A stretch of DNA of 64,000 nucleotides from an uncultured Gammaproteobacteria bacterium (GTDB lineage: Bacteria; Patescibacteriota; Patescibacteriia; UBA2196). Below the pieces are notes generated by a model. That model had not been told where the DNA came from, did not search any database, and saw only the letters and a program-made list of their open reading frames with translations. The first letter of the stretch is position 1; every line of letters begins with the position of its first letter. The position numbers and the translations under genes are program-made. The stretch lies in the NCBI GenBank assembly GCA_964522515.1, contig CAZFWC010000001.1:14536-78535 (forward strand), given 5' to 3'. This document shows positions 1 through 63,243 of the stretch, one piece after another.

Positions 1-29
1 TTTTTTCTTCGTGAGTCATTTTGAGTTTT

Positions 30-203
30 TCCGCCTTCGCCCCTAAAAAATCCTACTGGACTACGGCGGATACCTGTCTGCCGACAGGCAGGAATTCTTA
101 TTTAAAAAACACAGGAGCCTGTCCGCCGGCTTGCCCGCCGTAGCTTTTAGCGAAGGAGGGAGCTAGAGTTTTTTAGGATTGGGGGCGTAGGAGGATTAGG
201 CGA
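30..203. repeat. GC-rich composite palindromic element, full-length copy abutting stop codon of 204..1427
   Basis: CCGCCTTCGCCCC...CTACGGCGG / CCTGTCTGCCGACAGGCAGG / CTTGTGTTT..AAACACAGGAG / CCGCCGTAGC...GCGAAGGAGG...TTAGGCGA. Confidence 0.85.
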
Positions 204-3732: not shown

Positions 3733-3815
3733 ATTAGTTTAGCACGCGAATTTTCAGAATTACCTAAAATTTACGCGAATTTAATTCTGGTTTATTATGG
3801 TTATTTTGGAAATTC
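3733..3815. repeat. AT-rich palindromic intergenic repeat family (cacgcgaatt / ccagaat modules), copy 1
   Basis: shares about 30-nt blocks AATTTTAGGTAATTCTGG.AATTCG.GT.CTAT with 17080..17165 and 30720..30840. Confidence 0.7.
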
Positions 3816-8326: not shown

Positions 8327-10429
8327 ATGTCAAGCTCAAAATTATCAATTTTAAATTTATTTTTAGCAATTTTATTAAGTTTTAATATTTTTGTTTTTCA
8401 ATCCCCTATTTTAGGAATTATTTGTGGTGTTTTATTTTTAATTTTATGCAGTTGGTTAATAAATAAAAAAAATATTATTTTTGGTTTGCTAAAATTTTTA
8501 TCAATTTTAATTATTATTTTAAGCCTGATTTATTATTTTTATGAATTAAATAATTTTGTAATTGTTGGGTTTTTAGTTTTGTCAGCTTTAGTTATTTTAT
8601 TTTTAAATATTTTAAATAAAAATAATTACAAATTACAAGTTACAAATTACAAGTTACTTTTTAATTATAAAAAAATATTATTTGTTTTATTTTATTTAAT
8701 TTTACTTACAACTACTTATTTTTTACTTAAACAAGGCTCAACTTTAGAATCAGTTCGCACACCTTGGCACTTTGTTTCTAAATGGTTTTTTGTTTTATAT
8801 TTTGTAACCTCAGCGTGGTTAATTTTTATATTAACACGCTTAAAAACGGTTTCTGTTTTAATTTTAAGTAGTTTGCATTTATTTTTTACATTTTCAATTG
8901 CTAATATTATTTTTCCTTTAGGCTTTGGTTACGATCCATTTATTCATCAAGCAACTGAAAAATATATTCTTGAACACGGGTTTATTTTGCCAAAACCATT
9001 TTATTATTTAGGTCAATATTCTTTAGTTATTTTTTTTACTAAAATTTTTCAAATTTCACACATAATTATTGATAAAAATTTAGTTCCTTTGCTTTCTGCA
9101 ATTTTACTACCGTCAACAATTTATTATTCTTTTAAAAAAATATTCCCTAATCTCTATTCTCTATTCCCTATTTTTATTTTTTTATTTATTCCTTTTTCAA
9201 TTTTAACTTTTACAACACCTCAAAATTTAGCTGATTTATTTGTAATTATTTTAGCATTTTTAGGTTTTGCTTGTTTAAATAAATCCCACATTTTACCACA
9301 AAATATTAAATCTAACACAGAAAGGGATAAACAAATTTCAATTTATTTTTTAACTTTGTTGGTTGTTGCAATTTTAATAATTCACCCAATTGCTGGTTTA
9401 GCTGGAATAATTTTTTTGTCTGTGTTGTGGGTAGATAAATTAAAAATAAAAACTTGGTTGCGTAGATTAGTTTATACTTTTTTATGTTTTTTAATGTTAA
9501 TTGCTTTTGTTATTTTGTCTTTTATTTCCAGATTTGAAATTAATTTTGTAAATAATTTTAATTTAATTAATTTTTTTAAAAATTGTTTTAGATTTTTTCC
9601 TGATTTGCACTTGAACACAAATATTGTTCACCTTGTTACAACTGTTGCTTATTTTATTTGGCAACCTTTAGTTTTATTTTTAATAATTTTAATTTTAGCA
9701 TTTTTTGGATTTAGATATTTTAAAAATAAATTACAAATTAAAAATTACGAATTACTAATTACTTTTTTAATTTTACTAATAAATTCTATTTTAGTTTTTT
9801 CTTTTTTAGATTTTGATTTTTTAATTCTTTACGAACGCGGAGATTTTGCTTTAAGGATTTTTAATCTAGCTGTTTGGTTTCTTGTGCCTTTAGCATTATA
9901 TTTTATATTTTTTTATCTTTATATTTTTATATCCAAAAATAAATATATAAAGTTAATTATGTTTTTAATTTTAGCTAGTATCTTAACTGGTTCTTTATAT
10001 TTTTCTTATCCGCGAGCAGACCGTTATTTTACTTACCGCGGTTTTAATTCTTCAATTTACGATTTTAATGCTATAAAATATTTAGAAAAAAATACAAACG
10101 AAACTTATGTTGTTTTAGCAAATCAGCAAATTGGAGCAACAGCTCTTACAATTTATGGATTTCATTATTTTGATGATAAATATTTTTTTTATTCAATTCC
10201 AACAGGCGGTGAATTGCACAAAGTTTTTTGGCAAATGGTTTATGAAGAACCAACTTATGAAAAAGCAAAAATTGCAATGGATTTAACGGGTGTAGATGTG
10301 GTTTATTTTTATTTACCAGATTATTGGTTTAATTTAAAAAAACTCTTTCCAGTTGCTTTGAAAGAGTCTAGTGGCTTAGAAATTTTAGAAAATGGAAAAA
10401 TTTGGGTTTTTAAATATATCAAAAAATAA
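8327..10429 (+). CDS. polytopic membrane protein, possible GT-C-fold glycosyltransferase/polymer glycosylase (YfhO/GtrC-like)
   Basis: 700 aa with more than 12 hydrophobic helices; context in glycosyltransferase locus with GtrA/GtrB-like pair; assignment by architecture only. Confidence 0.4.
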   Translation: MSSSKLSILNLFLAILLSFNIFVFQSPILGIICGVLFLILCSWLINKKNIIFGLLKFLSILIIILSLIYYFYELNNFVIVGFLVLSALVILFLNILNKNNYKLQVTNYKLLFNYKKILFVLFYLILLTTTYFLLKQGSTLESVRTPWHFVSKWFFVLYFVTSAWLIFILTRLKTVSVLILSSLHLFFTFSIANIIFPLGFGYDPFIHQATEKYILEHGFILPKPFYYLGQYSLVIFFTKIFQISHIIIDKNLVPLLSAILLPSTIYYSFKKIFPNLYSLFPIFIFLFIPFSILTFTTPQNLADLFVIILAFLGFACLNKSHILPQNIKSNTERDKQISIYFLTLLVVAILIIHPIAGLAGIIFLSVLWVDKLKIKTWLRRLVYTFLCFLMLIAFVILSFISRFEINFVNNFNLINFFKNCFRFFPDLHLNTNIVHLVTTVAYFIWQPLVLFLIILILAFFGFRYFKNKLQIKNYELLITFLILLINSILVFSFLDFDFLILYERGDFALRIFNLAVWFLVPLALYFIFFYLYIFISKNKYIKLIMFLILASILTGSLYFSYPRADRYFTYRGFNSSIYDFNAIKYLEKNTNETYVVLANQQIGATALTIYGFHYFDDKYFFYSIPTGGELHKVFWQMVYEEPTYEKAKIAMDLTGVDVVYFYLPDYWFNLKKLFPVALKESSGLEILENGKIWVFKYIKK

Positions 10430-12926: not shown

Positions 12927-12936
12927 ATTGATTTTT

Positions 12937-13105
12937 TCCGCCTTCGCCCCTAATCCCGAGTACTCGGGACTACTGGACTATGGCGGATAAATTTCTAGTT
13001 CAGTTTTAAATTTTTTTTAATTTAAAAAAATTTAAAACTGCATTAAGAGCCTGCCCGCCGTAGCTAGGATTTTTTAGAGTTGAGGCGAAGGAGGGTTAGG
13101 CGAAT
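12937..13105. repeat. GC-rich composite palindromic element (with CCCGAGTACTCGGG sub-hairpin) filling the GT4 / radical-SAM intergenic gap
   Basis: same modules as 30..203; ends at the stop codon of 13106..14233. Confidence 0.85.
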
Positions 13106-14233: not shown

Positions 14234-14236
14234 AAA

Positions 14237-14300
14237 AAGTGATTAGTGATTAGTGATTAGTGATTAGATATTTTTATCCTGCTCACTGCTCACTATTCAC
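14237..14300. repeat. tandem heptamers (AGTGATT)x4 followed by (TGCTCAC)x2
   Basis: GTGATTAGTGATTAGTGATTAGTGATTAG...CTGCTCACTGCTCACTATTCAC. Confidence 0.7.
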
Positions 14301-17079: not shown

Positions 17080-17165
17080 TTAATTAAGCACGCGAATTAC
17101 CAGAATAAACCAGAATTTTAATTCGTGTAAATTTTAGGTAATTCTGGTAATTCGTGTTCTATTCT
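17080..17165. repeat. AT-rich palindromic intergenic repeat family, copy 2
   Basis: AGCACGCGAATTACCAGAATAAACCAGAATTTTAATTCGTGTAAATTTTAGGTAATTCTGGTAATTCGTGTTCTAT. Confidence 0.7.
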
Positions 17166-30719: not shown

Positions 30720-30840
30720 ATCAAGCACGCGAATTTCCAGAAGCGAAAAAGTAAATGATTTTACTTTTGAGACAGAATAAACCAGAATTTAAATTCGCGT
30801 CAATTTTAGGTAATTCTGGAAATTCGCGTTCTATTTTATT
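30720..30840. repeat. AT-rich palindromic intergenic repeat family, copy 3 (longest)
   Basis: AGCACGCGAATTTCCAGAAGCG...AAACCAGAATTTAAATTCGCGTCAATTTTAGGTAATTCTGGAAATTCGCGTTCTAT. Confidence 0.7.
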
Positions 30841-31680: not shown

Positions 31681-32967
31681 TCAAAGTCCCTCATAATCTC
31701 TCATCACTAGTTGCGAATCAATTTGTCTAACAGTTTCTAAAACAACAGAAACAACAATCAAAAGTGAAGCTCCAGAAATCGCGATACTTTTGATATCTGT
31801 GATTGGTCCAATTAATAATGGTAAAACCGCAATCAAACCAAGCGACAAAGCGCCAGCTAACATTATTCTAATTGAAACCTTGCTTAAATAATCTGTTGTT
31901 TGTCTGCCTGGTCGAATTCCAGGAATAAATCCGCCTTGCTTTTGTAAATTTTCTGAAATTTGATTTGGATGAAAAATAACAGAAGTATAAAAATAAGTAA
32001 ATCCAAAAACCAAAAAGAAATATAAAATTCCGTAAGCCCAACCACCTGGTTGTAAAATATGAGTTACAAATTGCGAAGCGTTGCGGATAAATTCTGATTT
32101 AGCGTTTACAAAAAATTGCGCAATTAAAGTTGGGAACATCACAATTGCAATCGCAAAAATAATTGGAATCATTCCTGCTTGATTAACTTTTAAAGGCAAA
32201 TGTGTATCAAAACCGCCGTACATTCTGTTTCCTCTAACTCTTTTTGCGTAAGAAATTGGAATATTTCTTTGTCCTTCAGTAATTATTACAACACCAGCAA
32301 CTGTTAAAACAGCGATTATTAAAAACGCAATGTAGCCTGGAGCTTTGCTCGGGTTTGTTGAAATATCAGTTAACATTCGCGGAACCGCAGTTGGAATTCC
32401 AGAAACAATTCCCGCAAAAATGATTAAAGAAATACCGTTGCCAATTTTCTTTTCAGAAATTAATTCACCAAGCCACATTAAAAATACTGTGCCAGCTGTT
32501 AAAATAATTATTGTTGATAAATATTGACCAGTGCCTAAATCTCCAATAATTCCGCCAGAGCTTTGCAGAATTTTTATCATACTGTAACCTTGAAGAATTG
32601 CTAAAGGAATTGTTAACATTCTTGTGTACTGATTAATTTTTTTCTGTCCGCTTTCACCTGATTTTGATAATTCTTCAAGAGCTGGAACAATCATTGTTAA
32701 AAGTTGAAAAATAATTGAAGCAGTAATATAAGGACCAATTCCTAAAGCAACAATTGAAAAATTACTCATTCCTCCACCTGAGAAAACATTTAATAAACCT
32801 AATAATTCATTTCTGTTAAATAAATCTTTTAATGCTTCCAAATCAACTCCTGGCATTGGGATTTGCGCTGCGATTCTAAAAACAATAAGTAATCCTAAAA
32901 CAAACAGAATTGATCTGCGCAAATCGTGGTCTTTCCAAATTTGATGAATTTTAGAAATGAATTTCAT
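31681..32967 (-). CDS. secY: preprotein translocase subunit SecY
   Basis: 10-TM SecY architecture, conserved blocks; position between rplO and adk. Confidence 0.95.
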   Translation of the reverse strand: MKFISKIHQIWKDHDLRRSILFVLGLLIVFRIAAQIPMPGVDLEALKDLFNRNELLGLLNVFSGGGMSNFSIVALGIGPYITASIIFQLLTMIVPALEELSKSGESGQKKINQYTRMLTIPLAILQGYSMIKILQSSGGIIGDLGTGQYLSTIIILTAGTVFLMWLGELISEKKIGNGISLIIFAGIVSGIPTAVPRMLTDISTNPSKAPGYIAFLIIAVLTVAGVVIITEGQRNIPISYAKRVRGNRMYGGFDTHLPLKVNQAGMIPIIFAIAIVMFPTLIAQFFVNAKSEFIRNASQFVTHILQPGGWAYGILYFFLVFGFTYFYTSVIFHPNQISENLQKQGGFIPGIRPGRQTTDYLSKVSIRIMLAGALSLGLIAVLPLLIGPITDIKSIAISGASLLIVVSVVLETVRQIDSQLVMRDYEGL

Positions 32968-32970
32968 ATT

Positions 32971-33402
32971 TTACTTTATTTTTCCGCCAGCTTTTTCTAT
33001 TTTTTCTTTTGCTGATTTTGAAAATTCACAATTTTCTATTTCTAATTTTATACTAATTTTTCCGTTACCCAAAATTTTAACTCCATTATTTATTTTATCA
33101 ACTAATTTATTTTTTTTCAAAATTTCCGGGGTGATTTTGTCACCATCTTTAAATTTTTCATTTAAGATATCTAAATTTAAAATCTCTGGTTTTTTATTTC
33201 TTGATTTAAAACCTTTTAATTTGTGTGTGCTTTCAATTAATTGTCGCGCTCCTAATCTTTTCAAACCTGAAACACCAGAACGAGCTTTTTGTCCTTTTTG
33301 TCCTTTTCCAGAATAAGTTCCGCGTTTTCCACCGCGACCAATTGTTTTGCGCGATTTTGTGCTACCTTTGGCTGGTTTAATTGTGTGTAAAGATAAAGTC
33401 AT
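32971..33402 (-). CDS. rplO: 50S ribosomal protein L15
   Basis: Gly/Lys/Arg-rich N-terminus, conserved L15 blocks; operon position. Confidence 0.9.
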   Translation of the reverse strand: MTLSLHTIKPAKGSTKSRKTIGRGGKRGTYSGKGQKGQKARSGVSGLKRLGARQLIESTHKLKGFKSRNKKPEILNLDILNEKFKDGDKITPEILKKNKLVDKINNGVKILGNGKISIKLEIENCEFSKSAKEKIEKAGGKIK

Positions 33403-33471
33403 AAAATTTTGTAATCTGTAATCCGTAATTTGTAACTTGTAAATTTATTTTAAATAATTACAAATTACAAG
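33403..33471. repeat. inverted arrays of TGTAAYN heptamers in the rpsE-rplO spacer (where L30 would lie)
   Basis: TGTAATC TGTAATC CGTAATT TGTAACT TGTAAAT ... AATTACA AATTACA AGTTAC. Confidence 0.7.
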
Positions 33472-33951
33472 TTACTTTTTTTCTTTTGGTTTTTTCAAAT
33501 TTTTTAACGCTTGATAAGTGCAAGCAACATTATTAATTTTATTTTTACTTCCCATCATTTTGCCAACAACATTTTCAATTCCAGCTAAATCCAAAACAAC
33601 ACGAATTGCTCCGCCAGCTTTTAACCCTGTTCCTTTTGGCGCTGGTTTTAACATTACGCAAGCTGCGTTAAATTTTTCTCTAATTTCGTGAGTGATTGTT
33701 CCATTAACAATTTGAATTTCAAACATTATTTTTTTAGCTTGTTCAACTGCTTTTGAAACTGCAATTGTAACATCTTTTCCTTTTGCAATTCCGTAGCCAA
33801 TTTTGCCTTTTTTATTTCCAAGCACAACTAAAGCGCGGAAGTTTAATCTTTTTCCTCCACGGGTAACACGAGTTACACGCGCTAAATCAACCAACTTTTG
33901 TTCAAATTCTGGTTTTTCTCGTTTAAATTCTTTTTTATTATTTTTTCTCAT
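33472..33951 (-). CDS. rpsE: 30S ribosomal protein S5
   Basis: S5 dsRBD-like and C-terminal domains (RVTRVTRGGKR...); no L30 gene between rpsE and rplO. Confidence 0.9.
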   Translation of the reverse strand: MRKNNKKEFKREKPEFEQKLVDLARVTRVTRGGKRLNFRALVVLGNKKGKIGYGIAKGKDVTIAVSKAVEQAKKIMFEIQIVNGTITHEIREKFNAACVMLKPAPKGTGLKAGGAIRVVLDLAGIENVVGKMMGSKNKINNVACTYQALKNLKKPKEKK

Positions 33952-33960
33952 AATTTATTT

Positions 33961-34096
33961 CTCCGCCTTCGCTTCTAAAAAATCCTACTGGACTACGGCG
34001 GATAAACTCTTGTGTTTAAAATTTAAAAAACATAGGAGCCTGTCCGCCGTAGCTAGAGTTTTTTTAGGATTGAAGGCGGAGGAGGATTAGGCGCAA
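33961..34096. repeat. GC-rich composite element between rplR and rpsE
   Basis: shared modules; right end at rplR stop, left end 9 nt from rpsE start. Confidence 0.85.
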
Positions 34097-35086: not shown

Positions 35087-35096
35087 AAATTTATAA

Positions 35097-35282
35097 TTTA
35101 TCCGCCTTCGCCCCTAAAAAATCCTATTGGACTACGGCGGATACCTGTCTGCCGACAGGCAGGAACTCTTGTGTTTAAAATTTAAAAAACACAGGAGCTT
35201 GCCTCCTCCTTCGCTAAAGCTACGGCGGGACAGGCGCCGTAGCAATTAAAGAGTTGCTAGGGAGCGAAGGAGGGGAAGCGAT
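35097..35282. repeat. GC-rich composite element between rpsH and rplF
   Basis: full module set incl. CCTGTCTGCCGACAGGCAGG palindrome. Confidence 0.85.
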
Positions 35283-35720: not shown

Positions 35721-35734
35721 AATTTTGTAATTTC

Positions 35735-35900
35735 TCCGCCTTCGCCCTTAAAAAATCCTTTAACACTACGGCGGATAAATTTTTAGTGTTTTTTTATAAA
35801 AAAGAATTAAGAGCCTGCCCGCGCCGGCTTGTCCGCCGTAGCCTTTGGCAAGGAGGAAGCTAGAGTTTTTTTAGAGTTGAAGCGAAGGAGGGTTAGGCGA
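35735..35900. repeat. GC-rich composite element between rpsN and rpsH
   Basis: shared modules. Confidence 0.85.
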
Positions 35901-36096: not shown

Positions 36097-36221
36097 CTCC
36101 GCCTTCGTTCCCTAAAAATCCTACTGGACTACGGCGGATAAACTCTTGTGTTAAAAAAACACAGAAGCTTGCCCGCCGTAGCTGGGACTTTTAGGATTGA
36201 AGCGAAGGAGGGGAAGCTAAA
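36097..36221. repeat. GC-rich composite element between rplE and rpsN
   Basis: shared modules. Confidence 0.85.
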
Positions 36222-38437: not shown

Positions 38438-38452
38438 AATTTTTTATAGTTT

Positions 38453-38598
38453 ATCCGCCTTCGCCCCTAATCCCGAGTACTCGGGACTACTGGACTACGG
38501 CGGATACCTGTCTGCCGACAGGCAGGAACTCTTGTGTTAAAAAAGCACAGGAGCTTGCCCGCCGTAGCTAGGACTTTTAGGGTTGAAGCGAAGGAGGG
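38453..38598. repeat. GC-rich composite element between rpsC and rplP
   Basis: shared modules incl. CCCGAGTACTCGGG sub-hairpin. Confidence 0.85.
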
Positions 38599-40223: not shown

Positions 40224-40316
40224 AAAATATTTAGCAACTTGTAATTCGTAACTAGTAACTTGTAAATTGATTTTTTATTTTTTAAAATAAAACAATTACG
40301 AGTTACAAATTACAGA
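40224..40316. repeat. inverted arrays of GTAAYNN heptamers in the rplB-rpsS spacer
   Basis: TTGTAAT TCGTAAC TAGTAAC TTGTAAA ... AATTACG AGTTACA AATTACA GATTAC. Confidence 0.7.
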
Positions 40317-41156: not shown

Positions 41157-41162
41157 AAAAGT

Positions 41163-41356
41163 TTTTCCGCCTTCGCCCCTAATCCCGAGTACTCGGGACT
41201 ACTGGACTACGGCGGATACCTGTCTAGCTGACAGGCAGGAACTCTTGTGTTTAAAATTTAAAAAACACAGGAGCTTGCCTCCTCCTTCGCTAAAGCTACG
41301 GCGGACAGGCGCCGTGGCAATTAAAGGGTCGCTAGGGAGCGAAGGAGGGGAAGCGA
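41163..41356. repeat. GC-rich composite element between rplW and rplB
   Basis: near-identical to 35097..35282 plus sub-hairpin. Confidence 0.85.
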
Positions 41357-41803
41357 CTAAACTCCTTCGTAAACATCTAATTTATCATTTTTTTGTAAAA
41401 TAATTATTGCTTTTTTCCAATTTTTTAATTTACCAAATTTTCTTCCGTATCTTACCATTTTACCGCGCATATTTACAGTATTAATTTTAACTGGTTTTAC
41501 ACCATAAAGTGTTTCAATTGCTTTTTTAATTTCTGATTTATTTGATTTTATCGCAACTTCAAAAACATATTGATTAAACTCTCCTAAGGAAGATGCTTGT
41601 TCAGTAATTATTGGTCTGATTAAATTTTTGTAAGCGTTGCCGTGATATTTTGTTGCCAGACTTTTATTTTTTGGTAATTTAGTTTTTTTTAATATTTTTT
41701 TTTCTTCAACTTCAACTTCATCAAATTTTTTAATCTGTTTTTTAGCTGTGTCTGATTTTTTCTTTTTAAATTTATCAAAAATACTCATATTGTCATTTAT
41801 CAA
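41357..41803 (-). CDS. rplW: 50S ribosomal protein L23 (N-terminally extended)
   Basis: L23 core IIRPIITEQA...; operon position. Confidence 0.85.
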   Translation of the reverse strand: MINDNMSIFDKFKKKKSDTAKKQIKKFDEVEVEEKKILKKTKLPKNKSLATKYHGNAYKNLIRPIITEQASSLGEFNQYVFEVAIKSNKSEIKKAIETLYGVKPVKINTVNMRGKMVRYGRKFGKLKNWKKAIIILQKNDKLDVYEGV

Positions 41804-41853
41804 ATATCAGTTATCAGTTGCTTTTGATAATTGATAAATGATACTTGATATTT

Positions 41854-43084: not shown

Positions 43085-43131
43085 ATTTTAAAAAAAATTT
43101 ATATCTTATATCTTATATTTTATATTCTATA

Positions 43132-46199: not shown

Positions 46200-46400
46200 T
46201 TTATTTATGATTTGCTAACAACCTTTCCCTAAAGGGAAAGTTTTCTCCAGTTGTTAGAGTTAATTTTTTTATTAATTAAATTTTAACAGATGCTAAAAAT
46301 AATGTCAAACAACAAACCCAAAGTTCAAAGTTAAAAGCTCAAAAAAATATCAAATACTAAATATTAAATTTTTAAATAAAATTTTTTCTAAAAGAACAAG

Positions 46401-46458: not shown

Positions 46459-47094
46459 TTAATAAACTGCTTCTTCCTCAAATTCATTTTCTATTTCTTC
46501 ATCATTATTTTCATCAATATCTTTTTCATCAAACGAAACATCAATAATTGGTTTTTCTTCTGTTCTAAAAAAATCTGAGGCTGTTACATCTGGTGGAGGT
46601 GGAATATCTTCGTATTTAATTGGTTCTGTTTCAGAATTGTCTTTTAAATTATCAAATTTTAAATCATTGTTTTTTATTTCATCTGCGTCCAAATCATATT
46701 TAGGTGCAGTAAAATCCTCTTCCTCTTCCTCATCTTCATTTTCATTTTCGTAATCATCTTCTTCCCAATTATTATTTTTAAAATCTTTTTTTTCATCTTC
46801 ATCTTCCCAAGGTCTGTAATCTAATTCAGGTTTATCAAATTCAGATTTAAATGGATCTTCAATTTCTAATTCGTCTTCTTGTTCTGGATGTTCTTGTTTC
46901 CAAATTGAAATATCACGATCAATTTGGTTTAACATTTCTTTTTCGTTTAAATTTTTAATATTGTCCGCATTTTCAATAATTTTTTCATAATCTGAAAAAG
47001 GCATTAAAACTAAATTTGTATTATTGTTTTCATCCACAATAATAATTTTGTCATTTGTTTTTTTAACTAAGTTGATGATTTTGTCTAGGTTCAT
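46459..47094 (-). CDS. highly acidic hypothetical protein (Asp/Glu-rich C-terminal two thirds)
   Basis: composition; no domain recognised; adjacent to TA pair and RM-like gene. Confidence 0.45.
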   Translation of the reverse strand: MNLDKIINLVKKTNDKIIIVDENNNTNLVLMPFSDYEKIIENADNIKNLNEKEMLNQIDRDISIWKQEHPEQEDELEIEDPFKSEFDKPELDYRPWEDEDEKKDFKNNNWEEDDYENENEDEEEEEDFTAPKYDLDADEIKNNDLKFDNLKDNSETEPIKYEDIPPPPDVTASDFFRTEEKPIIDVSFDEKDIDENNDEEIENEFEEEAVY

Positions 47095-47978: not shown

Positions 47979-49490
47979 GTGTATAATAAAAATGAGGTGA
48001 TAATAATTAAAAATAAAATTATGGAAAACAGAACACTTTATTTTGGCGACAATTTAGAAATTTTAAAAGAAAAAATTCCTGATGAAGTTTTTGATTTGAT
48101 TTATCTTGATCCGCCTTTTAATTCCAATCGCAACTACAATGTCATTTTTAAAGAAGGACTGATGGATAGCGAAGCGCAAATTCAAGCATTTGAAGATTCT
48201 TGGCATTGGACACCAGAAACTAAAAAAACATTTGATTATTTGGTAAGAAAAACCAATGATGGAATTTCAAATTTAATGCAGGCTTTGGAAAAAATGATTG
48301 GCAATAATGATATGCTGGCGTATTTAACAATGATGACAGTGCGATTGATTGAATTGCATCGAGTTTTAAAAAAAACCGGCAGTTTATATTTACACTGCGA
48401 CCCAACAGCAAGTCATTATTTAAAACTCGTTTTGGATGTGATTTTTGGAAAAGATAAATTTAGAAATGAGATAGTGTGGTGGTATCACGATCCTTCTGGT
48501 ACAACTTTAAATAAGTTTAAAAGGAAGCATGATATAATATTCTTTTATACCAAATCCGATGATTATATTTTTAATGCAGATGCAGTTAGGACTCCTTATA
48601 CAGAAAGCACTTTAAAGCAAGGTGAAAGAGGGACAATTTCTTTTGGAAGACCAACCAAAACTCATCCTCTAGGGAGAGTATGTGAAGATGTTTGGGAAAT
48701 ACCAATAATTAATTCTATGTCTAAAGAACGGCTTGGCTATCCTACCCAAAAACCAGAAATGCTTTTGGAAAGAGTTATCAGGGCATCATCAAAAGAAGGT
48801 GATTTAATTTTAGATCCATTTTGTGGTTGTGGCACAACTGTTTCTGTGGCAGAAAGATTAGACAGAAAGTGGGTTGGTATTGATATTACAATGTTAGCTA
48901 TAAATCTTATTAAGAAAAGAATGAGAGAGCAGTTTGAAGATAAAAATATAAAAATAAATATTGATGGTTTGCCAAAAGATTTATCTGGTGCATTGGCTTT
49001 GGCAAAAAAGGATAGATTTGAATTTGAATATTGGGCATTAAGTTTAATTGATGCAATGCCAGCAAAAAGTAAAAGCAAAGAAAATATGCGAGGCGCTGAC
49101 AAAGGTATTGACGGCACACTAGCACCAATTACCGGCGTTAAAAATGGCAATATGCAATATGGCAGAATTTTAATTCAAGTAAAAAGTGGTGGTGTAAAAC
49201 GAAATGATATTGCCACACTCAAAGGAGATATTGAAAGAGAAAAAGCAATTGGTGGTGTTTTTGTCACTTTAGAAAAACCAAGTAAGCCAATGTTGGAAGA
49301 GGCAGTTTTATCCGGAGAATATACTGTTGAATTTTTTAAAGGTGAATTTCCTAAAGTACAAATTTTAACCATAGAAGAATTGTTGCACGGGAAAAAATTA
49401 AATTTGCCATTATGGTCAAAAGAATATCATAAAAAAGCAAAAAAAGTTGAAATTGAAAAAAATAAATTTCAGGTGGGATTGGGGGTGTAG
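47979..49490 (+). CDS. beta-class N6A/N4C DNA methyltransferase fused to C-terminal Mrr-like (PD-D/ExK) restriction-endonuclease domain; likely true start near 48021 (MENRTLYFGDNLEIL)
   Basis: motif IV DPPF (IYLDPPFNSN) before motif I (DPFCGCGTT); C-terminal DKGIDG...ILIQVK resembles Mrr catalytic core. Confidence 0.8.
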   Translation: MYNKNEVIIIKNKIMENRTLYFGDNLEILKEKIPDEVFDLIYLDPPFNSNRNYNVIFKEGLMDSEAQIQAFEDSWHWTPETKKTFDYLVRKTNDGISNLMQALEKMIGNNDMLAYLTMMTVRLIELHRVLKKTGSLYLHCDPTASHYLKLVLDVIFGKDKFRNEIVWWYHDPSGTTLNKFKRKHDIIFFYTKSDDYIFNADAVRTPYTESTLKQGERGTISFGRPTKTHPLGRVCEDVWEIPIINSMSKERLGYPTQKPEMLLERVIRASSKEGDLILDPFCGCGTTVSVAERLDRKWVGIDITMLAINLIKKRMREQFEDKNIKINIDGLPKDLSGALALAKKDRFEFEYWALSLIDAMPAKSKSKENMRGADKGIDGTLAPITGVKNGNMQYGRILIQVKSGGVKRNDIATLKGDIEREKAIGGVFVTLEKPSKPMLEEAVLSGEYTVEFFKGEFPKVQILTIEELLHGKKLNLPLWSKEYHKKAKKVEIEKNKFQVGLGV

Positions 49491-53538: not shown

Positions 53539-53546
53539 TTTTATTT

Positions 53547-53632
53547 CTCCGCCTTCGCCCCTAAAAAATCCTACTGGACTACGGCGCCTGTCCGCCGTAG
53601 CCTTGGCAAAGGAGGAGATAAACTCTTGTGTT
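53547..53632. repeat. GC-rich element upstream of rpsL start
   Basis: CTCCGCCTTCGCCCC...CTACGGCGCCTGTCCGCCGTAGCC...GGAGG. Confidence 0.8.
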
Positions 53633-53766
53633 AAATTATTTTAAATTATTGATATTAAAAAAACCATCTTTTGATGATTAAAAAATAATCTACATTAAGA
53701 TTAAACTATTTTAAAAATTGTGTCAAATAAAAAAAGTAATCTGTAAATTGTAAATTGTAAAAAAAT

Positions 53767-54378
53767 TCAACTACCAATAAATAAATTATAAATAAAATAA
53801 ATTATTGGTGAGATTAAACGAAAAAGAAAGAATATAAAAAATAAAAGCAAAATGTATCCGTAGCGTTCTAAAAATGCGCGAATTTGAATACTAATTTCAT
53901 TATCAGGTAAAAGCGAAAATAAAATTTTTGATCCGTCTAAAGGCGGAATCGGAACTAAATTAAAAACAGCAAGCAAAATATTTGCGTAGACTATAATTGA
54001 TAAAATAAATGAAAAATCATTTAAAGGCAAAAATCTAATTAGCATTGCAAAAATAAAAGCCAGCAATAAATTAGAAACAGGACCAGCAGCCGCAACTAAA
54101 CCAATATCTCGTTTTTGATTTTTTAAATTAAAAGGATTAAACGGAACTGGTTTTGCGTAAGCAAAAATAAAATTACCGCCAGAAACAAGCAAAAGAATTA
54201 CAGGCAACAAAAAAGTGCCAAAAAAATCAATATGAGCTTTTGGATTTAAAGTCAACCGACCTGCATTTCGCGCTGTTGGATCGCCTAATTGATCAGCTGT
54301 CCACGCGTGAGCGTATTCGTGAATAATCGCAGACGGAATTATTATTAAGAAAAAAAATATTAATTGTGAAGGGTCCAT
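53767..54378 (-). CDS. M50-family (site-2 protease-like) membrane metalloprotease
   Basis: HEYAHAW (HExxH) inside TM helix, multiple TM segments. Confidence 0.6.
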   Translation of the reverse strand: MDPSQLIFFFLIIIPSAIIHEYAHAWTADQLGDPTARNAGRLTLNPKAHIDFFGTFLLPVILLLVSGGNFIFAYAKPVPFNPFNLKNQKRDIGLVAAAGPVSNLLLAFIFAMLIRFLPLNDFSFILSIIVYANILLAVFNLVPIPPLDGSKILFSLLPDNEISIQIRAFLERYGYILLLFFIFFLFRLISPIIYFIYNLFIGS

Positions 54379-54384
54379 AAATTA

Positions 54385-54540
54385 TTTTAATTTCCAATTT
54401 CCAAGATACAATTTCCAAATAAATCTCAAAAATCAAATTCCAAAAAAATATTATAAAATAATAATTTAAATAAAATATTGGAAATTGAAATTTGGAACTT
54501 ATTTGGAAATTGGAAATTGTATCTTGGAAATTTAAATCTT
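54385..54540. repeat. long AT-rich inverted repeat built from TTCCAAN heptamers flanking M50 protease gene start
   Basis: AATTTCCAATTTCCAAGATACAATTTCCAAATAA ... TTATTTGGAAATTGGAAATTGTATCTTGGAAATT. Confidence 0.7.
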
Positions 54541-54610
54541 GACACTTTTATTTTATCATAGTAAAATAAAAATATCTAATTAAATTAGTTTTGAAAAAAG
54601 GATAAATTTT

Positions 54611-56887: not shown

Positions 56888-56897
56888 TTTTTTTAAG

Positions 56898-56945
56898 CCT
56901 GCCTGCCCGCCGTAGCTTTAGCGAAGGAGGGTCCTGAGGAGGAAC
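56898..56945. repeat. GC-rich element core upstream of ychF
   Basis: CCTGCCTGCCCGCCGTAGCTTTAGCGAAGGAGGG. Confidence 0.75.
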
Positions 56946-57000
56946 GACCAAAGATCCCATTGTTAAACAAAACTTTCAGGATTAATTAATTTTTTTTAAA

Positions 57001-59170: not shown

Positions 59171-60088
59171 TTACACCCTTAAATATTTTCCAATTGAGAT
59201 AAAACTAGAAATTGTATTTAACACAATAATTACAATTAATTCAAATCCAAAAATATAAATAAAATGACCTGAAATATAAGACATTAAATTAAAATTAATA
59301 TCAATAAAAAAATTGTAAAAAATTGGTTGCAAAACTCCGGCAATTAAATAAAAAATTATCCAAAAAATAACACTGCCAACAATTGCATAAAGCGCGCCTT
59401 CAAGTAAAAACGGCACTCTAATAAACCAATTTGACGCGCCAACTAATTTCATAATTCCAATTTCTTCACGGTGAGTGTAAATTCCAATTCTAATTGTATT
59501 AAAAACAACAAGCAACGCAATCAAAGCAAAAAAACCACTTACAATTAATCCAAATGTTTTAATTTTATTTCCAATATTTTCAAGTTTTTGAATTACTAAT
59601 TTGTTATCGTCGTAATCAATATCTTGCGCAAGCTCGTCAATTTTATCTTTTTTTAAATTATTTAAAATTTCTGGATACAAATTAACATTTTCAGCTTTAA
59701 TCGTCAAGGTTGGTCCCAAAGGATTTTCATTAAGTTCAATTAAAGATTCTTGAACAAGTTCGTTGTTTTCGTGAAATTTTTTAAATTTGCTTAAAGCTTG
59801 TTCTGCGGAAATAAATTTTACTTCTTTAACTTGATCGTATTTTTCAATATTTTGTTTTATTAATTTAACTTGTTGTTCTTCTGCGTTAGATTCAAAATAT
59901 ATTGAAATATCAATTTTATTTTTAATTGCCAAAATTGCGTTGTCTGTTGCCGCGTTTAAAACAATAAGTGAAGTTAAAGAAAATAAAGTTAAAATAATAA
60001 TTGTAATTGTAACCAAAGACAGCCAGAAATTTCTGTAAAAATTTTGGAAAGAAAATTTAATAATTCTTGTTAAAGTTAGTAAAAACAT
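59171..60088 (-). CDS. ftsX: cell division permease FtsX-like
   Basis: N-terminal TM, periplasmic domain, 3 C-terminal TM; adjacent to ftsE. Confidence 0.7.
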   Translation of the reverse strand: MFLLTLTRIIKFSFQNFYRNFWLSLVTITIIILTLFSLTSLIVLNAATDNAILAIKNKIDISIYFESNAEEQQVKLIKQNIEKYDQVKEVKFISAEQALSKFKKFHENNELVQESLIELNENPLGPTLTIKAENVNLYPEILNNLKKDKIDELAQDIDYDDNKLVIQKLENIGNKIKTFGLIVSGFFALIALLVVFNTIRIGIYTHREEIGIMKLVGASNWFIRVPFLLEGALYAIVGSVIFWIIFYLIAGVLQPIFYNFFIDINFNLMSYISGHFIYIFGFELIVIIVLNTISSFISIGKYLRV

Positions 60089-60094
60089 ATTTAT

Positions 60095-60245
60095 TTTTTA
60101 AAGCTCCAAGATACAAGTTCCAAATCCCAAATAAATATCAAATTTCAATTTTCAGTATTTTATTAAAATTATATTTTTATAATATTTTTTTGTAATTTGA
60201 TTTTTGGAATTTATTTGGAAATTGTTTTTTTGGAAATTGGAAATT
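60095..60245. repeat. related AT-rich GGAAATT/CCAAAT heptamer inverted repeat between ftsE and ftsX
   Basis: CCAAGATACAAGTTCCAAATCCCAAATAAAT ... ATTTATTTGGAAATTG...GGAAATTGGAAATT. Confidence 0.6.
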
Positions 60246-60995
60246 TTAGAGTAGATATCTTCCTTTTTCCTGATCAGCAGACACAGTACCATTTTCTAAA
60301 GTAATCACGCGTTTATGCAAAGAATTTACAACTTCTCTGTCGTGCGTAACTAAAAGAATTGTTGTGCCAAACTCATTTATTTTTTGTAAAATATCAATAA
60401 TATCTCGTGTGTTAATTGAATCTAAATTTCCAGTTGGCTCGTCAGCAATTAAAATTTTTGGCCTGTGAATTAATGCTCTGGCAATTGAAACTCGTTGTTG
60501 TTCCCCGCCAGATAATTCTTGCGGGTACCTGTTTGTTTTTTCTTCAAGCCCAACAATTTTTAAAACTTGCGGAACAATTTTTTCTATTTTTTTATTTGTG
60601 GAACCAGAAACTTCTAAAGCAAAAGCAACATTTTCAAACGCGGTTTTTTTTGGAAGTAATTTAAAATCCTGCCAAACTACACCAATTTGTCTTCGTAAAA
60701 GCGGAACATGTCTGCGTTTTATTTTTGTAATATCCCAACCGCCAACAATAATTTTCCCTTTAGAAATTGGTTCTTCTGAAATCAAAAGTCGCACAGCTGT
60801 TGTTTTGCCTGTGCCTGATTGACCAACTAAAAAAACAAACTCTCCTGGTTTAATATGGAACGAAGCATTTTTTAATGCATTTACATCGGGTTTATAAAAT
60901 TTTGATACATTTCTAAATTGAATCATAAAATAATTTTCAGTAATCAATTTTCCCGCCTGCCAAATCTCACTGGCGGGCAGGCAATTTTCAAACAA
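60246..60995 (-). CDS. ftsE: cell division ATP-binding protein FtsE (true start probably MIQFRNV near 60926)
   Basis: Walker A GQSGTGKTT, ABC signature LSGGEQQR, Walker B ILIADEPT. Confidence 0.85.
   Translation of the reverse strand: MFENCLPASEIWQAGKLITENYFMIQFRNVSKFYKPDVNALKNASFHIKPGEFVFLVGQSGTGKTTAVRLLISEEPISKGKIIVGGWDITKIKRRHVPLLRRQIGVVWQDFKLLPKKTAFENVAFALEVSGSTNKKIEKIVPQVLKIVGLEEKTNRYPQELSGGEQQRVSIARALIHRPKILIADEPTGNLDSINTRDIIDILQKINEFGTTILLVTHDREVVNSLHKRVITLENGTVSADQEKGRYLL
60950..60983. repeat. GC palindrome (CCCGCCTGCC...GGCGGGCAGG) in ftsE 5' region
   Basis: 10-bp arms, 14-nt loop; related to element helix module. Confidence 0.55.
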
Positions 60996-61364: not shown

Positions 61365-61394
61365 ATATTTTTTTAAAATTATTTAAGAATTGTT

Positions 61395-61475
61395 TAGAAA
61401 TTGAGAACTGAAAATTGAAAATTGAAAATTTTTTAATCCCTTAATTTCTAATTTCTCAATTTCTCAATTTCTATT
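61395..61475. repeat. inverted arrays of GAAAATT heptamers
   Basis: AGAAATTGAGAACTGAAAATTGAAAATTGAAAATT ... AATTTCTAATTTCTCAATTTCTCAATTTCT. Confidence 0.7.
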
Positions 61476-62285
61476 TTAATAAGACACAACTCTAACTCCT
61501 AAAACCCCTCCCCCTGGATTTCCAATTTTACTAAAAGCTGTTTTTGTTAAATCAACAATTCTGTTATCAACAAAAGGTCCTGTGGAAACTACTTTAACTT
61601 TAACACATTTTTGCAAATTATCTAAACGACAAACTTTAATAAAAGTTCCAATTTTGTAATTGTTTGACGCGCAGTTGTAAGCAGAACTTGGAGTTAACGC
61701 GTCTCCGTACCAACTTGCCCAAGCTTCAAATTCATTTGGAATTTCAAAAACAGCTAAAATCGCGTAAGGCAAATGAATCACAGCGCGAGTTAAATTATTT
61801 TCTAAATCATTTGTGCCAGGCAAAGGTTTCCATTTTTTTGATCCTCCGTCCCAAAAAAACATTTGTTTGCGAAGCATTTTTGTATTTTTAAATTCATCTT
61901 TTAATTCAGGATTTTTAATTGCCACAAAAAGTGGTTTGTTTAAAACACCAATTCTTGGATCTCCTAAAAAATCAAATTCCCAAGCAGATGAAACTCGTTT
62001 GTAATTTAACTCGTTTCCGAATTTGTCAACCACTGGTCCAACAGGCGCCCAGCTTTCATTTAATTCTCGTAAAACCGCAGTGGCAGACTGTGAAATTGCT
62101 TTGTCCACTACACCTAATTTAAATTCGTTGTCTCCTGCAACAACTGTGTAGCCTTTTAAAATTGTTGCTTCATCAATAAATAATTTCCACTCTCTTTTTG
62201 TCCAAGGTTCTGTTTGAGCCTCTACAAAATTAAAAGTTAAAAAAGTTAAAATTAATAAAATTAGTAGTAAAATTTTTCTTGACAT
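61476..62285 (-). CDS. secreted RlpA-like double-psi beta-barrel protein
   Basis: signal peptide; C-terminal WASWYGD...VVSTGPF...IVDLTKTAF resembles RlpA DPBB. Confidence 0.6.
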   Translation of the reverse strand: MSRKILLLILLILTFLTFNFVEAQTEPWTKREWKLFIDEATILKGYTVVAGDNEFKLGVVDKAISQSATAVLRELNESWAPVGPVVDKFGNELNYKRVSSAWEFDFLGDPRIGVLNKPLFVAIKNPELKDEFKNTKMLRKQMFFWDGGSKKWKPLPGTNDLENNLTRAVIHLPYAILAVFEIPNEFEAWASWYGDALTPSSAYNCASNNYKIGTFIKVCRLDNLQKCVKVKVVSTGPFVDNRIVDLTKTAFSKIGNPGGGVLGVRVVSY

Positions 62286-62328
62286 AAAATTAGTTGTTAT
62301 TTGATAATTGATATTTTTTATATTAAAA

Positions 62329-62943: not shown

Positions 62944-63126
62944 GCCGAAGTAGCTCAGTTGGTAGACCTGCCCGCCCTAGCCTGAGCCCTTTTAGCTCAA
63001 TTGGTAGAGCAACGGTATCGTAAACCGTAGGTTGTCAGTTCGAATCTGACAAAGGGCTAAGGCGATGGCAGGCGGGGCAGTGCTTTCGTAAAGCAAAGGT
63101 CGTGAGTTCAATTCTCGCCTTCGGCT
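62944..63126 (+). other. tRNA-like gene (anticodon loop UUCGUAA, CGU) split at D-stem positions 23/24 by a 110-bp insertion (62967..63076) closed by a 10-bp GC helix and containing tRNA-Thr
   Basis: 5' part GCCGAAG-TA-GCTC-AGTTGGTA-GA; 3' part GC-A-GTGCT-TTCGTAA-AGCAA-AGGTC-GTGAG-TTCAATT-CTCGC-CTTCGGC-T; acceptor 7/7 complementary. Confidence 0.5.
62986..63058 (+). tRNA. tRNA-Thr (anticodon CGU)
   Basis: perfect cloverleaf GCCCTTT-TA-GCTC-AATTGGTA-GAGC-A-ACGGT-ATCGTAA-ACCGT-AGGTT-GTCAG-TTCGAAT-CTGAC-AAAGGGC-T. Confidence 0.85.
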
Positions 63127-63190
63127 TTTTAAACTTTAATGCTTTTAAATAAAAATTTTAATCTAAAATTTTTTATTTAAAAGAACTAGA

Positions 63191-63243
63191 AGCCCGCCAG
63201 CCGAAGCAATAAAGGGTTGTTAAAGGCGAAGGCGGGTGAGCGA
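63191..63243. repeat. GC-rich element short copy abutting ftsB stop
   Basis: GCCCGCCAGCCGAAGC...GGCGAAGGCGGGTGAGCGA. Confidence 0.7.

Follow-up and report, generated by a model that had tools for sequence, protein, structure and literature searches.

Heptanucleotide-repeat hairpins in the rpsE/rplO spacer and other short spacers of a Patescibacteria genome

Tandem heptamer repeats have been known for decades in cyanobacteria, Xanthomonas and Beggiatoaceae. To our knowledge neither the preference for a unit of seven nucleotides nor the inverted pairing of the arrays has yet been explained, and we found no report of such repeats from the CPR/Patescibacteria in the searchable literature. Among the long simple sequence repeats (SSRs) of prokaryotes, those with a heptanucleotide unit are reported to be the most abundant, and polymerase slippage has been proposed for them (Mrazek 2007, as relayed in PMC4679880 and PMC4692102). 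Xanthomonas carries about 185 arrays of GGGAATC, 89–93% of them intergenic, and 70–75 convergent pairs capable of forming stem-loops (PMC4692102). In the Beggiatoaceae, cyanobacteria and some Bacteroidetes direct repeats of TAACTGA are found just upstream of start codons, including those of ribosomal protein operons (PMC4679880).

Here we describe arrays of this type in a stretch of 64,000 nucleotides of a patescibacterial contig, hereafter the window, which has 28.8% G+C and nearly every gene on the minus strand. Related copies occupy the rpsE/rplO spacer, at least six other short spacers and one gene within it.

The rpsE/rplO spacer and the absence of L30

The genes around the spacer, all assigned through Pfam, and the spacer itself, defined by sequence, fold and sister-genome comparison, are as follows.

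31681..32967, minus strand: gene for SecY
32971..33402, minus strand: rplO (L15)
33403..33471, minus strand: rpsE/rplO spacer, heptamer-repeat hairpin element of 69 nt
33472..33951, minus strand: rpsE (S5)

The gene assignments uphold the initial annotation, made from the sequence alone, in its reading of rpsE followed by rplO with a 69-bp spacer. On the plus strand 33403..33471 reads AAAATTT TGTAATC TGTAATC CGTAATT TGTAACT TGTAAAT, an AT loop, and ATTACAA ATTACAA GTTAC. Five direct units with a GTAA core occupy 33410..33444, and three inverted units span 33457 to 33475 with TTAC cores at 33458, 33465 and 33472, the third of them overlapping the S5 stop codon. The described layout of five direct plus three inverted units stands, while the unit given for it, TGTAAYN, fits only three of the five direct copies exactly; the GTAA core is present in all five, and the GTAA/TTAC core is common to all eight units. 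As in heptanucleotide SSRs generally, at least three 7-nt copies lie head to tail, which both TRF and lag-7 scans detect.

The transcript of the spacer is predicted to fold into a stem of 15–19 bp (RNA dG −15.4 kcal/mol, z −3.35, equalled by 0 of 200 shuffles). By inspection a second pairing register, shifted by 14 nt, is possible, in which the stop-codon end of the element and the last units would pair, leaving 8 nt up to the rplO start. Depending on the register the rplO start codon lies 8–20 nt past the hairpin, and no Shine-Dalgarno sequence is visible. No Rfam model matched the spacers, whether the gathering threshold or E ≤ 1 was applied, and a known RNA family was rejected on this count. 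The rpsE/rplO spacer is unchanged in 10 contigs assembled independently from other samples (99.9–100% identical overall), so its array is no assembly artefact. On the plus strand, antisense to the operon, weak promoter-like sequences of the form TTGTAA-17-(A/T)A(T/A)AAT (9 of 12) were seen at 33430..33458 and 40260..40288; such matches are common in the AT-rich DNA of the window.

In other bacteria rpmD, the gene for L30, stands at this position, and the loss of L30 is ancestral to the entire CPR radiation. The 69 nt of the spacer are too few for L30, a tblastn search of the window with two hand-entered L30 queries gave no signal, and genome contigs searched with SecY put the window among the Patescibacteria, near Kuenenbacteria-like lineages; in both respects, the absence of L30 and the nature of the host, the earlier reading was correct. 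The closest relatives (L011 and L171–L176) have a SecY that is ~93–94% identical to that of the window. Neither the protein collection nor the contig collections contained a relative with a SecY between 94% and 100%; the SecY cluster consists of an identical group and the ~93–94% identical group.

In these closest relatives L30 is also missing, and rpsE either overlaps rplO (ATGA) or is separated from it by 11 nt; the more distant L012 (SecY 75% identical) has a gap of 6 nt and no hairpin. The spacers of the S10-spc operon measure 1–31 nt throughout the sister genomes, and the number of heptamer arrays in the sister species of the window is zero. Since the sister genomes have no L30 and yet retain a tight junction, the hairpin is a species-specific insertion, as are those between L2 and S19 and between L4 and L23, which are not found in the sister genomes either. 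The gap between S5 and L15 has a median of 9 nt among 131 loci of the Patescibacteria. Six of these loci carry a heptamer array at S5/L15, compared with nine at S14/S8, twelve at L15/SecY and five at L2/S19. S5/L15 was rejected as a preferred site, arrays being found at most operon junctions.

These comparisons bear on the view that the spacer is the decayed remnant of a lost rpmD, which is almost certainly wrong. The spacer does sit where rpmD would be expected, but its 69 nt are composed of repeats devoid of L30 similarity in tblastn, the nearest genomes have at most a short gap (6–11 nt) or an overlap and are themselves devoid of L30, the median gap is equally small, and the gene was lost before the radiation of the whole group. 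The rpmD pseudogene was accordingly refuted by the sister genomes, and the proposal that the array has taken the place of L30 falls as well. The sequences indicate instead that L30 was lost anciently, that the junction had long been closed, and that the rpsE/rplO hairpin is a recent insertion in the species of the window. Relative to its sister species S5 bears an additional EKK at the C-terminus, where the frame enters the first heptamer and meets a TAA stop; S5 acquired these three codons following the insertion, the TAA of the first heptamer now ending rpsE. A tempting but wrong tie between the loss of L30 and this spacer is thereby removed.

Period-7 arrays in the window and in other Patescibacteria

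An array was scored where 16 or more of 21 consecutive lag-k comparisons matched, and TRF was also run. The intergenic DNA of the window contains 12 period-7 arrays where 0.38 are expected (~30-fold; maximum of 3 in 200 dinucleotide shuffles). The initial annotation had made its reading depend on an enrichment of heptamers over shuffled sequence, and period 7 is far in excess of the shuffles. Periods 4–6, 8, 9 and 12 do not rise above background, while 10, 11, 13 and 15 show a marginal excess at most (2–3 arrays); the harmonic period 14, with 7 arrays, is the sole other period clearly raised. The window contains GTAANNNGTAA 25 times where 2.6 occurrences are expected (maximum of 8 in 100 shuffles), and the GTAA-core unit is found at no fewer than five places. 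Apart from the rpsE/rplO spacer we were able to identify the following elements.

40224..40316, minus strand: rplB/rpsS (L2/S19) spacer, GTAAYNN hairpin of 5 + 4 units; fold dG −26.8, z −5.6
41789..41853, minus strand: rplD/rplW (L4/L23) spacer, TATCAAN / NTGATAA hairpin; fold dG −16.5, z −6.0
14234..14292, minus strand: glycosyltransferase/radical-SAM spacer, AGTGATT x4 opposite CTGCTCA x2; fold dG −22.1, z −5.0
54385..54540, minus strand: palindrome of ~156 nt made of TTCCAAN-type heptamers; fold of 54375..54545 −51.2 kcal/mol, z −7.6
60089..60245, minus strand: ftsE/ftsX spacer, degenerate copy of the 54385 element by alignment; fold of 60085..60250 −24.6, z −2.4
61394..61475, minus strand: GAAAATT/GAAATTG hairpin; fold of 61385..61480 −22.2, z −3.8
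43096..43131, no strand assigned: direct-only TATATCT array (scan), no hairpin when folded
46314..46379, no strand assigned: direct-only degenerate array (scan), NNCAAAG then AAATANT
53730..53765, no strand assigned: direct-only GTAAATT array (scan), no hairpin when folded
62288..62325, no strand assigned: short TTGATAN array (scan) in a 43-nt spacer
8617..8668, plus strand: CDS-internal ATTACAA/GTTACAA array inside the membrane-protein ORF 8327..10429

Recurrence of the design had been noted at 40224..40316, 54385..54540, 60095..60245 and 61395..61475 and, inside a coding sequence, at 8625..8660; a like design is indeed present at all of these. The further suggestion that these AT-rich arrays form hairpins is borne out by predicted folds that are stable beyond shuffles in the window hairpins. 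Among the direct-only arrays those at 43096 and 53730 alone were folded.

The L2/S19 element is an insertion with TAA...TAA at its bounds. On the transcribed strand the L4/L23 spacer contains AACTGATAACTGATA, including the heptamer TAACTGA, and the hairpin at 14234..14292 shows periodic mismatches. The palindrome at 54385..54540, which RNA folding predicts to be paired across most of its length, stops 10 nt upstream of the start codon of the gene for an M50 protease, and the GTAAATT array lies on the M50 stop-codon side of the spacer 53539..53766. The hairpin at 61394..61475 is directly 3' of the stop codon of a gene for a DPBB-domain protein, and the next start codon is ~31 nt off.

The array at 8617..8668 encodes NNYKLQVTNYKLL, in a polar stretch of ORF 8327..10429 (plus strand). 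The product of this ORF is a polytopic membrane protein of 700 aa, for which there was no Pfam match. Further in-frame arrays are located at 9138..9172 and 9719..9774, and these three within one ORF show that coding sequence can absorb heptamer arrays.

We surveyed 160 Patescibacteria loci, 2.18 Mb in total, and found 199 arrays of period 7 against 10–65 for each of the periods 4–6, 8–13 and 15. Period 7 thus exceeds the shuffles in the window, and the other non-harmonic periods in the window and in these loci alike, as is typical of heptanucleotide SSRs. Their preference for intergenic DNA is present too, 139 of the arrays scored by context being intergenic and 36 in coding sequences while intergenic DNA makes up 11% of the sequence (~30-fold density). 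An inverted partner was counted wherever the reverse complement of the unit stood at least twice in tandem no more than 120 nt away; 63 of the 139 intergenic arrays (45%) have one, while the reverse-only and complement-only controls gave 5 and 4. These pairs, together with the hairpin folds, correspond to the convergent inverted pairs of the Xanthomonas type. Recurrence of inverted-pair arrays, a central claim of the initial annotation, is therefore far above chance (12 against 0.38; 63 of 139 against 4–5 in the controls).

The 139 arrays comprise 92 distinct canonical units, which are AT-rich (mean 26% GC); AAAATTG recurs 11 times and some units recur across lineages. Typical heptamer hairpins are found in L066, L063, L055, L149 and L017, many of them in ribosomal protein junctions. 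Their spread is patchy, at least one array being present in 42 and three or more in 14 of the 109 loci with a length of at least 8 kb.

The heptamer hairpins and the GC-rich palindromes of this genome are distinct classes of spacer, as had been supposed. The latter measure ~80–200 nt, contain motifs including CCGCCTTCGCC and GGACTACGGCGG and occupy many spacers, among them most ribosomal protein junctions. They are located as follows.

33952..34096, 35087..35282, 35721..35900, 36142..36221, 38438..38598, 41157..41356: GC-rich palindromes
12927..13105, 1..203, 53539..53640, 56888..56960, 63185..63243: further GC-rich palindromes

Copies of these palindromes are up to 95.6% identical and are not found in any sister species, and those of the ribosomal protein operon are, like the heptamer hairpins there, recent insertions. 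At 38486 one of them differs among strains by an indel of 5 nt, and the 3' arms carry a GGAG-like sequence ~10 nt ahead of start codons. At 62944..63125 a gene for tRNA-Thr(CGT) is interrupted by an insert of ~110 nt, and ARAGORN calls a normal tRNA-Thr once 62967..~63076 is removed. The insert holds a second, intact tRNA-Thr(CGT) at 62985..63059, between the GC-rich inverted repeats CCTGCCCGCC and GGCAGGCGGG. The spacers 3733..3780, 17088..17165 and 30760..30840 contain palindromic repeats of yet another, third family, AGCACGCGAATTnCCAGAA ... TTCTGGnAATTCGCGT. The window also contains an ORF fusing N6/N4 DNA methylase and Mrr-type endonuclease domains (47979..49490, plus strand), which a gene for a Phd/YefM-like antitoxin (46459..47094) adjoins.

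Probable slippage and dispersal, and possible functions

The loci L149 and L150 are 99% identical, and the indels between them include one 7-nt unit and one whole hairpin of ~62 nt. A complete TGACTAA/GTCATAA hairpin (L149 3080..3155) is present in one of the two and missing from the other, and at the filled site the upstream stop codon lies within the first heptamer, as with rpsE in the window. The initial annotation suggested that the repeats may be slippage-prone. The 7-nt change between L149 and L150 speaks for this in another lineage, while at 33403..33471 there is none among 10 assemblies. The copy-number variation between strains for which it proposed a check was likewise not seen at the rpsE/rplO spacer, all 10 assemblies being identical there. 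None of the heptamer arrays of the window varies in length across the 10 assemblies of this population, in which the sole indel falls in a GC-rich element; array slippage is not fast in the population of the window.

Identity of units within an arm averages 0.83, and complementarity between arms 0.76 (p=0.005). The arms commonly differ at one or two fixed positions, which results in helices with periodic mismatches (for example L066 9361..9425). The greater likeness within arms means that the arms were homogenised separately, as slippage predicts, and not by copying from arm to arm. Whole elements share sequence as well. Those at 54385..54540 and 60095..60245 have an irregular order of units in common over ~150 nt and are oppositely oriented relative to the genes, the S5/L15 and L2/S19 hairpins align with 79% column identity, and two copies in L149 are 85% identical with a like asymmetry of the arms. 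Dispersed copies having an ordered sequence in common, as MITE/REP-type elements do, are thus represented by all three pairs. Regarding a target-site duplication, nothing comparable to the TAA...TAA that bounds the L2/S19 insert was seen at S5/L15 or at the polymorphic site of L149, and a Pfam scan of ~40 ORFs of the window revealed neither a transposase or RAYT nor any other gene that might mobilise the elements.

The spacer is, in our judgement, probably a heptanucleotide SSR hairpin of the inverted-pair form, which spreads within the genome and changes by slippage, and which is unrelated to the loss of L30. A palindromic element with GTAA-core heptamers was inserted, in this species only, into an rpsE/rplO junction that was overlapping or ~10 nt long. 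Replication slippage, for which units of 7 nt appear to be favoured in many prokaryotes, would lengthen and shorten the arrays and homogenise each arm independently, and a putative further route would copy entire hairpins to new genomic sites. In compact genomes survival of the insertions would be restricted to the tiny spacers. The insert may be tolerated because it folds back in the operon mRNA, such that the upstream stop and the downstream start stay near one another, and because it carries no terminator; this folding-back may be the reason why palindromic inserts survive. Slippage alone leaves the preference for 7 nt and the frequent inverted pairing unaccounted for, and it could be selection for the hairpin that makes pairing so common. 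No conserved function of the heptamer hairpins is evident, and an effect on mRNA processing or coupling would be secondary.

One might nevertheless ask whether the hairpins are selected post-transcriptional elements, that is, stem-loops serving as RNase III sites or exonuclease barriers, or hairpins coupling translation. We think this unlikely, although a number of observations are in its favour. Every hairpin of the window starts either at the upstream stop codon or no more than a few nt from it, and, with the exception of that at 61394..61475, ends 5–20 nt before an unpaired start codon without a Shine-Dalgarno sequence; the downstream genes, moreover, are coupled by overlap in the sister species. 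The paired fraction of the arrays is far over the controls (45%), stem length is sufficient for RNase III (with −51 kcal/mol predicted for the 54385 element), and the TAACTGA repeats of the Beggiatoaceae also stand just upstream of starts, ribosomal protein operons included (PMC4679880). Yet the sister species do without all these hairpins, turnover is fast, whole hairpins being gained or lost between 99%-identical strains, and there are partnerless arrays that fail to fold (53730 and 43096). The adjacency to stops and starts follows automatically from insertion into ancestral spacers of just 1–15 nt, where no other placement was available.

Nor do the hairpins bear the mark of a selected RNA. 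Over 93 co-directional spacers sense and antisense folding stood at 41 against 35 spacers (p=0.49), and G-U pairs were equally unbiased. RNA-level selection was looked for as a sense-strand bias in stability or G-U pairs, and none was found; the want of a difference between the strands means that the symmetry of the palindromes is one of the DNA. A variant of the post-transcriptional reading, which we consider quite doubtful, regards the hairpins as a functional evolvable operon module, a "sliding" stem-loop with registers 7 nt apart that would tune the stoichiometry of genes without Shine-Dalgarno sequences. If this were true they would be selected to hold stop and start together or for cutting by RNase III, and would have a transposase-independent spread.

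It is scarcely credible that the hairpins are intrinsic terminators or attenuators fitted to an AT-rich genome, as the initial annotation had entertained. They are stable, and a short UUUU is found ahead of the rplO start codon; however, AAAA intervenes between the stem and this UUUU, the stems are AT-rich, and a terminator scan reported 0 of the heptamer hairpins. The sites would also split essential co-transcribed genes (S5/L15/SecY, L2/S19, L4/L23 and ftsE/ftsX), the hairpin spacers of S5/L15, L2/S19 and L4/L23 yielded no promoter-like site on the sense strand, and at these junctions sister genomes are without a spacer. The rpsE/rplO element, internal to the S10-spc-secY gene string, does not have the G+C-rich stem and abutting U-tract of an intrinsic terminator and was rejected as one; the wider claim is abandoned on the same grounds, the negative scan, the AT-rich stems, the displaced U-tract and the position inside an essential operon.

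Highly improbable, too, is the idea that the arrays are sequence-specific sites bound by proteins on DNA or RNA, or phase-variable contingency repeats which switch their neighbours. The GTAA-core unit at its five or more places in the window, the recurrence of some units across lineages (AAAATTG 11 times) and the 7-nt change between L149 and L150 would all be compatible with it. The 92 units among 139 arrays, and several unrelated units within the window, argue against a single sequence-specific binding factor, and binding sites in the sense of one universal heptamer motif, as mentioned in the initial annotation, are rejected on this count. As to contingency, the neighbours are housekeeping operon genes and not surface or restriction genes, array length is constant in 10 assemblies, and an intercistronic change of 7 nt leaves reading frame and promoter spacing intact; phase-variable SSRs were dismissed for the first two reasons. 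Resemblances to TIGR arrays, Pumilio-type UGUA sites and Fur boxes were dropped since the units vary between loci.

Heptamer-repeat hairpins constitute an abundant, fast-evolving intergenic filler in the Patescibacteria, even within the ribosomal protein operon with its normally tight packing. Compact CPR genomes offer clean empty and filled sites between near-identical strains, which makes the heptamer question easier to study. The arrays should be useful as strain markers and are a likely cause of assembly breaks in CPR metagenome-assembled genomes.

Comparison with known heptamer repeats and palindromic elements

The elements of the window have the defining features of the bacterial heptanucleotide repeats and thus belong to a known class. 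With the GGGAATC repeats of Xanthomonas and the GGGGA(C/T)T repeats of Nostoc (Rehm et al. 2015, PMC4692102) they share tandem 7-nt units, typically in ~4 copies there, an intergenic location (~90% there), many convergent arrays on opposite strands which are capable of forming stem-loops or cruciforms, and the want of an assigned function. Length and presence vary among close species there; here such differences were seen between L149 and L150 and, for presence, against the sister species, with none at 33403..33471 among the 10 assemblies. The units of Xanthomonas and Nostoc are G-rich, with one dominant unit per genome and a proposed G-quadruplex, whereas those of the Patescibacteria are AT-rich (26% GC) and several unrelated ones coexist. 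Unlike the former, the patescibacterial arrays fill intercistronic junctions of the ribosomal protein operon.

In this last respect they resemble the TAACTGA repeats of the marine Beggiatoaceae (MacGregor 2015, PMC4679880; 2–6 copies), which are located a few nt before start codons, in ribosomal protein operons among others, where Shine-Dalgarno sequences are rare. The TAACTGA heptamer itself is present on the transcribed strand of the L4/L23 spacer of the window. The Beggiatoaceae have one heptamer genome-wide, in 169 direct sets versus 1 indirect set (PMC4679880), while here the units are many and inverted pairs account for roughly half of the arrays.

From what PMC4679880 and PMC4692102 relay of Mrazek et al. 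2007, the cyanobacterial STRR and other long SSRs are likewise dominated by period 7, intergenic and patchy in distribution, with slippage proposed as their origin; what stands out more in the Patescibacteria is the hairpin layout, along with the dispersal of copies with ordered units. The REP/BIME elements of E. coli, the Correia elements of Neisseria and the Rickettsia palindromic elements are, as here, short, dispersed and imperfect palindromes in intercistronic positions, co-transcribed as stem-loops, and elements of the REP/BIME/MITE type also differ in presence between close relatives. Unlike these, the heptamer hairpins have no family consensus and no clear target-site duplication, and no RAYT or transposase accompanies them among the ~40 ORFs. 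The internal 7-nt periodicity of the arms is a property of the heptamer hairpins that the REP/BIME, Correia and Rickettsia families do not share.
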